Of a stretch of DNA of 24,000 bases, positions 21,188-22,979 are shown in pieces. This DNA comes from Streptosporangiaceae bacterium. GTDB lineage: Bacteria > Actinomycetota > Actinomycetes > Streptosporangiales > Streptosporangiaceae. The stretch is from contig DATLSX010000038.1 in NCBI GenBank assembly GCA_035533915.1, positions 81,019 to 105,018 on the forward strand, given 5' to 3'. The translations under genes were made by a program, and so were the position numbers. The notes beneath the pieces are model-generated. The model worked only from the letters and a program-made list of their open reading frames with translations, was not told the origin of the DNA and ran no database searches. Each line of letters starts with the position of its first letter. Within the stretch, counting starts at the first letter, position 1.

Positions 21188-21239
21188 GGTGTGCCACCTT
21201 CCAGGTCAGTTCAGTTCAGTACATATTGACAGAGCATGC

Positions 21240-21272
21240 GTCACCATCGCTAGGGGTCCGCTATATGGTGAC
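21240..21272. promoter_or_regulatory. Perfect 8-bp inverted repeat with 17-bp spacer upstream of the P450 gene (candidate operator)
   Basis: GTCACCAT (21240-21247) ... ATGGTGAC (21265-21272), 53-85 nt upstream of the P450 start codon. The surrounding sequence is unusually AT-rich (CAGTTCAGTTCAGTACATATTGACAGAGCATG). Confidence 0.35.
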
Positions 21273-21349
21273 CTAGCCCCGTTTGCCCCTGGCGAACGGT
21301 GCTGTACCTGCCTGGCGGCCCCGCGCCTGCCGGGAGGTCCCGCCAGCGC

Positions 21350-22021
21350 TCAGGAGTCTGCCGATATGAGCCTGGGCAGGTAACCGAGCACGTCCACGAG
21401 TTGCCCGACCGAGATCTTGCCCTTGCGCAGGATCGTTGCTTCCGCGCCGCCGCAGTCGACGATCGTGCTGAGCGTGGTGGGACTGATCTTCCCGCAATCC
21501 AGGAAGATCGAGACCTGACCGGCAAGATCGGCGGCGGAGTCCGGGCCCTCGACGATGGCGCTGGTCGCACTGCGCGCGGCCGAGGCCAGCAGCGGCCCAG
21601 TTCTCGTCAGCAATTCGACGGCCACGTCGTTGCCCGGCACCCGCACCTGCACCAGGCGTTCGTCACCACCGATGTGCCAGCGCAACGACGGAGAGGCAGG
21701 AACGATGAGGGTCAGCGGGCCGGGCCAGAATGCGTCGGCAAGCTTCCGGGCGCTTTCCGGGGCGTTCAAGGACACTCCGTCGAGCACCTGCTTGTCGCTT
21801 ATCAAGACTTGCAGGGGAGTAATCTCGTCGACTCCTTTCACCGAGCGAATGGCGTGGGCCGGAGACTCGGCAAACGCATAACCCGCCAGCGCGTATGCTG
21901 TATCCGTCGGAATGACGATGAGGTTTTGGCTGAAGACCGCGGAGACAGCGGCGGCGATGCCCTGCGATCGCGCGTCCTGGTCCGTGCAGTCGAAGATCTG
22001 CACCGCGTGGCTCCCATTCAA
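21350..22021 (-). CDS. YrdC/Sua5/YciO-family protein, paralogue 1 (stand-alone YrdC domain; catalytic tetrad partly substituted)
   Basis: The track ORF starts at TTG 22021. GTG 22003, preceded by GGGAG 7 nt upstream, is a better start. VIPTDTAYAL, FWPGPLTLIV, VRVPGNDVAVELL, LSTIVDC, ILRKGKIS. The KxR position reads KGV and the SxN position reads SAA. Confidence 0.85.
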   Translation of the reverse strand: MNGSHAVQIFDCTDQDARSQGIAAAVSAVFSQNLIVIPTDTAYALAGYAFAESPAHAIRSVKGVDEITPLQVLISDKQVLDGVSLNAPESARKLADAFWPGPLTLIVPASPSLRWHIGGDERLVQVRVPGNDVAVELLTRTGPLLASAARSATSAIVEGPDSAADLAGQVSIFLDCGKISPTTLSTIVDCGGAEATILRKGKISVGQLVDVLGYLPRLISADS

Positions 22022-22247
22022 CAGATCCCGTGCGGGCAGGCTGCTCGGGTCCAGCCTCCGGTCCGGGCACGCGCGACATCCTTCTCGCCTCGCGTGTCGC
22101 CTGCGGGGTCACGCTAGCATGACGGCTGGTAATAACGTGGAGCCGGGCGAGTGGCAGCAGCCCTTGCCTGCATGAAGCTGCCGGTGCCGCGTGGTGAACG
22201 TATCCGGCCGGGGGCCGCGGCTCGGGACCGACAAGGAGCATGCACGC

Positions 22248-22979
22248 GTGACGAAGTTCGAGTTTATGCGGTCGCATTCCAGCAGCGGAATGCTTACGCT
22301 TTCGCAAGTGGCTCGGATTTCGGACAGCTTGCGCGGCGGTTCGCTCGCGGTCTTGCCGACGGAAACTGGATATATGCTCGCTGCGGTAGCTACCTTGCCG
22401 GAATCTGTCGAGCATGCATTCGCCGTGAAATCCCGGCAGACCGCGAAGGTAATGCATGTAGCCTGCGCGTCGCTGGAGATGGCGCAGGAAGTCGGCCAGC
22501 TCTCGCCGGACGCACTGCGCCTGCTCGGCGCGTTTACCCCTGGCCCGCTCTCGGTGATCGTGCCCAAGACCGCAGTGCTTCCTGATCGCCTGGTGACGCT
22601 TGACGGAACGGTCGGAATCCGGATACCTGATCATCCCGCGACGCTTCAGGTGATTCACGAGGTCGGCAAGCCACTGACTGCGACTAGCCTGAATGTCAGC
22701 GGCGCGGCATCCGTGCCGCTGGAAAAGCTGGAACTCGACACGCTGAACTGGCCTCCGGGCGAGGCGGTCCACGTCCTGGCCGACGACGAATCGATCCGGT
22801 ACGACCTGCCGTCCACGCTGGTGCGGTTGTCTGGCGGGCCGCCTGAAGTCCTCCGGGCTGGTCCGGTCACCGAAGCTGACGTGCGACGGGTCGCCGGCCT
22901 GCCGGGCTACCTGGAAGCTGCTGGCCAGGGTCCGCCGCAGGTTGGTTTACCGGACCTGGCAGCGAGCTTCGGGTCATGA
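22248..22979 (+). CDS. YrdC/Sua5/YciO-family protein, paralogue 2 (L-threonylcarbamoyladenylate-synthase-like, canonical motifs)
   Basis: GTG 22248 is preceded by AAGGAG (22233-22238); the track ORF starts at 22191. VLPTETGYML, AVKSRQ (KxR), FTPGPLSVIV, IRIPDHPATLQVI, PLTATSLNVSG (SxN), STLVRL, VLRAGPV. Many A/T-ending codons. Confidence 0.85.
   Translation: MTKFEFMRSHSSSGMLTLSQVARISDSLRGGSLAVLPTETGYMLAAVATLPESVEHAFAVKSRQTAKVMHVACASLEMAQEVGQLSPDALRLLGAFTPGPLSVIVPKTAVLPDRLVTLDGTVGIRIPDHPATLQVIHEVGKPLTATSLNVSGAASVPLEKLELDTLNWPPGEAVHVLADDESIRYDLPSTLVRLSGGPPEVLRAGPVTEADVRRVAGLPGYLEAAGQGPPQVGLPDLAASFGS

Follow-up and report, generated by a model that had tools for sequence, protein, structure and literature searches.

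A head-to-head pair of TsaC-family genes, one tetrad-complete and one tetrad-rewired, in a Streptosporangiaceae genome with an empty canonical tsaC slot

Why would an actinobacterial genome hold two stand-alone TsaC-family genes head to head, one with every catalytic residue in place and the other without, between a cytochrome P450 gene and a polyketide synthase (PKS)-like gene? The question is raised by a 24,000-nucleotide stretch of a Streptosporangiaceae bacterium (the window), comprising positions 81,019–105,018 of contig DATLSX010000038.1 (C38) in GenBank assembly GCA_035533915.1, referred to as G000 (6.26 Mb in 198 contigs, 87% complete, GC content 0.687). TsaC/Sua5, which makes threonylcarbamoyl-AMP (TC-AMP) as the first step towards N6-threonylcarbamoyladenosine at tRNA position 37 (t6A37), is one of about 60 universal proteins, and to our knowledge one active copy per genome is assumed, with YciO in addition in some. 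A preliminary description of the window had read the two genes, here Y1 and Y2, as a possible foreign heteromeric adenylate-forming enzyme acting on something other than tRNA. The reading we favour, as probable though well short of certain, is that an inserted Y1/Y2 module took over the first t6A37 step, with Y2 as the TC-AMP synthase and Y1 as a retained, rewired TsaC descendant.

Conserved N-termini and Shine-Dalgarno sites, together with gene calls from the protein collection, fixed the gene bounds. Y1 (21350–22003, minus strand, GTG start) encodes a stand-alone TsaC-fold protein of 217 aa with a PF01300 (Sua5_yciO_yrdC) score of 108 bits, and Y2 (22248–22979, plus strand, GTG start after AAGGAG) a predicted stand-alone TsaC-type enzyme of 243 aa (PF01300, 130 bits). 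As described before, these are two head-to-head stand-alone YrdC genes on opposite strands, each with a single PF01300 domain and neither with Sua5_C; the spacer between them, previously put at about 230 bp, measures 244 bp (22004–22247) with the refined bounds. In the TsaC/Sua5 family ATP is bound by K56xR58/S143xN145 (the KRSN tetrad, Pyrococcus abyssi Sua5 numbering) and threonine by T33/S181/R195, all seven residues being needed for yeast Sua5 activity (PMC10321239). These positions were read from a MAFFT alignment of 31 Y1-clade, 13 canonical and 12 Y2-family sequences and from a HMMER alignment to P. abyssi Sua5 (PDB 6F89). Y2 has seven of the seven, with the PTETGY, K-S-R and S-L-N motifs noted in the preliminary description among them, and the complete tetrad and triad recur in all 12 Y2-family sequences. 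Y1 retains four (T33, K56, S181 and R195), with R58 changed to V, S143 to A and N145 to R, so that three of the four tetrad positions are lost and the site reads K-x-V / A-x-R. The preliminary description had the KGV half right, but its SAA was one residue out of register for what is A-A-R, and the two changed tetrad residues it counted are three in the HMMER and MAFFT alignments alike, both of them gapless. Throughout the Y1 clade (n = 31) position 58 is hydrophobic (V, M, L, I or F), position 143 is A in 97% and position 145 is R in 100%, with the threonine triad T33/S181/R195 kept in 100%.

The fold of Y1 is that of TsaC: its AlphaFold2 (AF2) model (predicted local distance difference test score, pLDDT, 94.2) matches P. 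abyssi Sua5 6F89 with a Foldseek template-modelling score (TMq) of 0.90 and a root-mean-square deviation of 2.0 Å, and phmmer links the two at E = 1e-19. The model is less close to YciO (TM 0.80), E. coli TsaC (0.72), HypF (0.70) and GdmN (0.49). Y2 belongs to the TIGR00057 family by a marginal pass (128.8 bits, cut-off 123.2), a model that scores the YciO of the genus at 185 bits (above the cut-off of 123) and does not discriminate within the family. Judged by its residues, Y1 is not to be filed as a TC-AMP synthase, because the KRSN tetrad is broken and K56 alone of it is kept.

Which gene, then, would make TC-AMP in this organism? The G000 assembly holds only three PF01300 matches, namely Y1, Y2 and a 779-aa HypF on contig C160, and Y2 is its only tetrad-complete stand-alone YrdC, with tsaE, tsaB and tsaD present on contig C196. 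The usual actinobacterial arrangement is prfA-prmC-tsaC-wecA-atp, and in 22 congeners the slot in prfA-prmC-[tsaC]-GT4(wecA/rfe-like)-atp is filled by a 217-aa tsaC (type A) reading KGR and SAN. The tsaC slot is empty in G000, where 92 bp separate prmC from the GT4 wecA/rfe-like gene. The same clean gap is found in nine more Y1 genomes (G001, G043, G015, G054, G014, G012, G019, G021 and G348), some of these empty-slot genomes being 95–98% complete, while tsaC occupies the slot in G005, G011 and G009; in the distant G348 (GCA_036495525.1) the Y1/Y2 pair makes up all PF01300 genes. Because the canonical slot is empty and the downstream TsaD, TsaB and TsaE are encoded, with no other TC-AMP synthase in the 87% complete assembly, Y2 is most likely the housekeeping TC-AMP synthase of G000 and probably the sole one.

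Within the genus, Y1 occurs only in genomes without the canonical gene. Among 39 genomes including G000 (all genomes compared being of metagenome-assembled genome, MAG, quality), in 22 the type A tsaC is intact and is the sole TsaC-like gene apart from YciO and HypF; Y1, at 68–72% identity to the window copy, is found without type A tsaC in 14, and two genomes, both incomplete, have neither. Every Y1 genome (14/14) carries exactly one other kind of tetrad-complete enzyme. This partner is Y2 in ten of the 14. G012 and G019 instead have a long Sua5 that includes a Sua5_C domain, and G021 and G023 the tsaC gene belonging to a tsaE-tsaB-tsaC-tsaD cassette of low GC (0.53–0.60); in G021 the cassette immediately precedes Y1, in the same orientation. 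G009 differs from these groups in that its type A tsaC, still in place (L027, 4448–5101), reads K-S-V / S-A-K; this tsaC has a nonsynonymous divergence (dN) of 0.185 versus 0.102 in its 22 congeners, and the genome carries the same tsaEBCD-type cassette just upstream of prfA. By alignment, R58V and N145K in G009 are a parallel, independent change at the two Y1 positions, and this gene may represent an early stage of the transition seen in Y1. No Y1-type protein was found in 300 other genomes of the order from 56 genera.

Several features of these partner loci are recorded in their own right. The low-GC cassette (host GC about 0.69) lies at L026, 123–2903, in G021, at L022, 6165–10288, in G023 and at L027, 82–1733, in G009; it is apparently mobile, is additional to the native tsaE, tsaB and tsaD, and occurs only in genomes with a tetrad-degenerate TsaC of the canonical lineage. 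The G023 cassette has two further genes between tsaB and tsaC (L022, 8397–9119 and 7768–8385, both minus strand), a highly divergent YrdC-like gene (PF01300, 69 bits) with no recognisable tetrad and a gene for a predicted membrane protein; it is a second instance in which an active YrdC accompanies a degenerate one. The Y2 orthologue of G007 (L033, 9342–10086, in a 10-contig assembly) is frameshifted, by true loss or by a long-read indel error.

As to the origin of the two proteins, in the family tree the Y1 clade (support 100) joins canonical actinobacterial TsaC as its sister group (support for the two together 96), the stem of the Y1 clade being long and long-branch attraction possible for this placement. 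Y2 falls elsewhere, among stand-alone TsaCs that have TATS[L/A]N motifs and form a clade of their own; the outer relatives of Y2 are nearly all metagenome proteins, with one from a Promethearchaeota MAG, and no donor is identifiable. The tree does not support Y1 as a recent duplicate of the genus's own type A tsaC, as that gene groups with Microbispora and the Y1 clade branches outside the whole set of actinobacterial TsaC sampled, as its sister. The true YciO orthologue of the genus is a 209-aa "type B" protein (for example L023, 7660–8298, in G015), which scores 219 bits (E = 5e-64) against E. coli YciO 1KK9 and was not found in the 87% complete G000 assembly. Y1 was rejected as a YciO, scoring 23 bits (E = 4e-4) against 1K7J/1KK9 and grouping with canonical TsaC. 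The preliminary description had itself named an alternative, with Y2 simply the housekeeping TsaC and Y1 an ordinary YciO; half of this holds, Y2 being the sole tetrad-complete YrdC, and half does not, Y1 being no YciO orthologue.

Y1 and Y2 also travel together. Upstream of Y1, nine congeners and seven of seven more distant contigs have a gene of the Y2 family on the other strand (five directly head to head, two with one gene between), the contexts of all seven being different; on one of these contigs there are an integrase and a DDE transposase, on another FtsK- and DUF932-like genes. Distant Y1 relatives (45–66% identity) keep the K-G-M and SAAR motifs. The distance matrices of Y1 and Y2 correlate with r = 0.86 across 16 pairs, a value reached in 0 of 2000 Mantel permutations, which shows co-inheritance and not necessarily contact; by adjacency and correlation together, the two genes behave as one unit of an active and a degenerate paralogue, as had been supposed. 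As regards the order of gain and loss, the pair is also found in the more distant G348, and in the P450 tree and the prfA+prmC tree G000 and G009 stand near the base of the Y1-bearing group with weak support. In G348 a gene for a 1455-aa FHA-FHA-P450-flavodoxin-FAD-NAD fusion (BM3-like; L051, 3348–7715) lies between Y2 and Y1.

The pair occupies an inserted segment of about 1.7 kb (21188–22866) between the P450 start and the PKS-like stop, with an empty site in congeners. Where the pair is absent (G011, G017 and G005), the PKS-like gene directly adjoins the P450 gene at a distance of about 75–190 bp, and we therefore regard the pair as an insertion and its neighbours as incidental. The P450 gene (19916–21187, minus strand) is on the Y1 side, with a pterin dehydratase gene and gcvT beyond it; on the Y2 side, from 22867 onwards on the minus strand, is the C-terminal part of a gene for a 1991-aa KS-AT-KR-DH protein. 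The 3' end of Y2 and the PKS-like tail converge with an overlap of 113 nt (22867–22979), owing to some 20 additional residues at the C-terminus of Y2 that are specific to G000 and not found in orthologues. Composition tells less about foreign origin than had been thought. The GC content of Y1 (0.645) and Y2 (0.641) is at the 7th and 6th percentile of about 4000 long open reading frames, against 0.687 for the genome, and the GC at third codon positions (GC3) is unremarkable at 0.80 (39th percentile) and 0.72 (18th percentile). The lower-GC patch of the preliminary description thus exists as a mild dip in GC that does not extend to GC3, and as the adjoining P450 gene, vertically inherited and syntenic, is as low (0.651), we rejected composition as proof of foreign origin; the insertion itself stands, by the empty site in congeners and by phylogeny.

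Y1 shows no sign of decay. The median ratio of nonsynonymous to synonymous divergence (dN/dS) is 0.145 for Y1, 0.206 for Y2 and 0.167 for canonical type A tsaC, values that are approximate with dS near 1, and by this measure Y1 is not decaying and is constrained like canonical tsaC. That Y1 is a decaying, functionless remnant is accordingly the least probable of the readings we considered: three of its four tetrad residues are gone, but an unbroken frame is found in 14 congeners and, at identities as low as 45%, in over 60 metagenomic clusters, new motifs (PLQVLIS, SAAR and VGQxVDVLGYMP) are invariant, and alongside the low dN/dS the AF2 model is confident.

How the two proteins might work can be set out as follows. 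The resident tsaC would have been deleted from its slot, with Y2, of another lineage, supplying TC-AMP to TsaD/TsaB/TsaE. Y1 would descend from canonical actinobacterial TsaC, with the fold, Lys56 and the threonine triad kept and the ATP/PPi site rewired; it most likely no longer makes TC-AMP, and would be maintained by strong purifying selection as a ligand-binding partner or as a neofunctionalised protein of the t6A pathway, with the 244-bp spacer driving expression of both Y1 and Y2. It might bind Thr, N-carboxy-Thr or TC-AMP and hand it over to TsaD, or it might carry a second, tetrad-independent function of actinobacterial TsaC. The proposal builds on observations (how the locus is laid out, which residues are kept, that canonical tsaC is gone, that the module is inserted and conserved, that its two genes are inherited together and that Y1 is accompanied by a complete TsaC), from which we infer that Y2 is active, and Y1 inactive, as a synthase. 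Y1 survives the exchange of Y2 for other TsaC types, which argues against an obligate Y1–Y2 complex and for a role compatible with whichever active TsaC is present.

A number of points weigh against this proposal or limit it. Co-inheritance and adjacency are no proof of a physical or functional interaction between Y1 and Y2, and an obligate complex is further disfavoured by four congeners with Y1 and no Y2 and by the frameshifted Y2 of G007. The congeners are related, so that 14/14 and 22/22 stand for few independent events; at 87% completeness G000 may hold a canonical tsaC elsewhere; and the invariant Arg145 could offset the lost Arg58, leaving Y1 possibly nucleotide-binding or even active. 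A more specific version, which we put forward tentatively, is that the two proteins are subunits of one TC-AMP synthase or the parts of a hand-off system. Y2 would make the TC-AMP, which is unstable, and Y1, as a pseudo-TsaC with the threonine pocket retained and the phosphate pocket remodelled, would bind TC-AMP or N-carboxy-threonine and deliver it to the actinobacterial TsaD/TsaB/TsaE. If the hand-off were true, canonical TsaC would have a separable docking or carrier role that is kept whenever a foreign TsaC takes over catalysis, and the R58V/N145K tsaC of G009 would be a second, independent case of the same split.

The suggestion that follows from Arg145 is that Y1 is a working TC-AMP synthase in which Arg145 replaces Arg58, and thereby the real successor of canonical tsaC, with Y2, the cassette tsaC and the long Sua5 as redundant or condition-specific additions. 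Y1 is indeed present in 14 of 14 congeners without canonical tsaC and as constrained as that gene, it retains K56 and the entire threonine triad, and a basic residue at 145 arose twice (R in Y1, K in the G009 tsaC), each time with loss of R58, as in a coupled swap rather than decay. We nevertheless consider an active Y1 unlikely, since S143 is lost too, each tetrad residue is required in yeast Sua5 (PMC10321239), and none of the 14 Y1 genomes is without a second tetrad-complete enzyme (with the Y2 of G007 frameshifted), an extra that none of the 22 genomes with intact tsaC carries. The concern about completeness leads to another possibility, that canonical tsaC resides in the unassembled 13% of G000 and that the pair is an accessory, possibly mobile, non-essential duplicate. 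The 198 contigs, the genus YciO that likewise was not found in G000, and the integrase, transposase or FtsK-like genes next to some distant pairs would fit; the slot, however, lies within assembled sequence and has no tsaC in G000 or in nine further Y1 genomes, with no canonical tsaC anywhere in them even at 95–98% completeness, and we hold this to be very improbable.

Equally improbable in our judgement is the reading of the preliminary description, a Y1/Y2 heteromer that forms adenylates of a non-tRNA substrate together with the P450 and PKS-like genes. In its favour, carbamoyl groups are activated by the YrdC-like domains of HypF and TobZ/GdmN-type enzymes (the fold match of Y1 to these being weak, TM 0.70 and 0.49), and the pair is located between a P450 and a KS-AT-KR-DH protein. 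Yet those two genes are adjacent, and conserved at 81–84% identity, in congeners without the pair, the pair is found in seven other unrelated contexts, the Y1 of G021 sits behind tsaEBCD, no Kae1-like transferase domain is fused to either protein, and with canonical tsaC lost at least Y2 is needed for t6A. A functional link to the P450 and PKS-like genes was rejected on grounds of synteny, the "DH/PPTase-like" ORF of the preliminary description being the PKS-like tail, and a function other than tRNA modification is not supported, with the tsaC slot empty and Y2 the sole tetrad-complete stand-alone YrdC of the assembly. Gene neighbourhood connects the role of Y1 with t6A genes rather than with the P450 or the PKS-like gene, in line with the displacement of tsaC by the Y1/Y2 module that we favour.

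The shared divergent control region (22004–22247) contains the putative Shine-Dalgarno sites of both genes and was compared in an alignment of ten congeners and two distant pairs. The near-palindrome GTCACGCTAGCATGAC (22108–22123) is kept in every congeneric Y1/Y2 spacer, occurs once in the 6.26-Mb assembly and is not found in the spacers of the distant pairs; it is a candidate operator or an overlapping pair of –10 elements (TANNNT). A riboswitch or other known RNA was dropped as a candidate, an Rfam search of the spacer having returned sub-threshold chance matches only and no RNA family. Scans of the spacer for a sigma-70 consensus promoter or an intrinsic terminator found neither, such scans being uninformative for actinobacteria.

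The lineage would show a housekeeping tsaC displaced by a foreign TsaC, with the ancestral protein long kept in a form with a rewired ATP site, and parallel rewiring where another TsaC is present points to a second, tetrad-independent role of actinobacterial TsaC-type proteins. Y1 would be a natural separation-of-function variant with which to seek this role. For the TsaC/Sua5 family, horizontal gene transfer in which the resident gene is lost has been documented by a survey that filtered out tetrad-less sequences (PMC10321239), and because of this filter Y1-like proteins were excluded from it by design. Annotation pipelines name Y1, Y2 and even YciO "L-threonylcarbamoyladenylate synthase", all of which pass TIGR00057, and with this model passing all and surveys discarding tetrad-less sequences the Y1 class has been mis-annotated and overlooked. 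We found no description in the literature of a subfamily derived from canonical TsaC, rewired in its tetrad and paired with an active TsaC; the locus appears to combine paralogue displacement with such a new subfamily.

Known systems resemble the pair in part. Tetrad-complete Y2 is like TsaC (YrdC)/Sua5 (TsaC2) (EC 2.7.7.87; PDB 6F87/6F89, 3AJE, 9DSQ and 1HRU) in domain, stand-alone architecture, tetrad and threonine triad, and differs from canonical actinobacterial TsaC in that its clade is separate, narrow and marked by the motifs TATSLN and MHVACAS, and in that its gene lies outside the prfA-prmC operon. Y1 shares with TsaC/Sua5 the fold, the 217-aa length of actinobacterial TsaC and its sister placement, and differs in being without R58, S143 and N145. 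Among tRNA-modification enzymes, ADAT2-ADAT3 and Trm61-Trm6 pair a catalytic subunit with a conserved degenerate paralogue, and such pairs typically arise when two genes replace a single-gene enzyme; Y1 differs in that it also persists with other TsaC types without Y2, and its pairing with Y2 is one of gene order and co-inheritance. HypF and TobZ/GdmN are alike in the fold of their YrdC-like domains, carbamoyl-adenylate chemistry being theirs, but these domains keep the tetrad and are fused to a Kae1-like transferase, whereas Y1 and Y2 are single-domain proteins of 217 and 243 aa and the HypF of G000 is a separate gene. A further comparison is with YciO (PDB 1K7J/1KK9), a widespread, conserved TsaC paralogue without the KRSN tetrad that is known to coexist with an active TsaC and not to replace it (PMC4615747; bioRxiv 10.1101/2024.07.01.601547). 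From YciO, Y1 is set apart by orthology (23 versus 219 bits), by its grouping with canonical TsaC and by its head-to-head pairing with a tetrad-complete TsaC.

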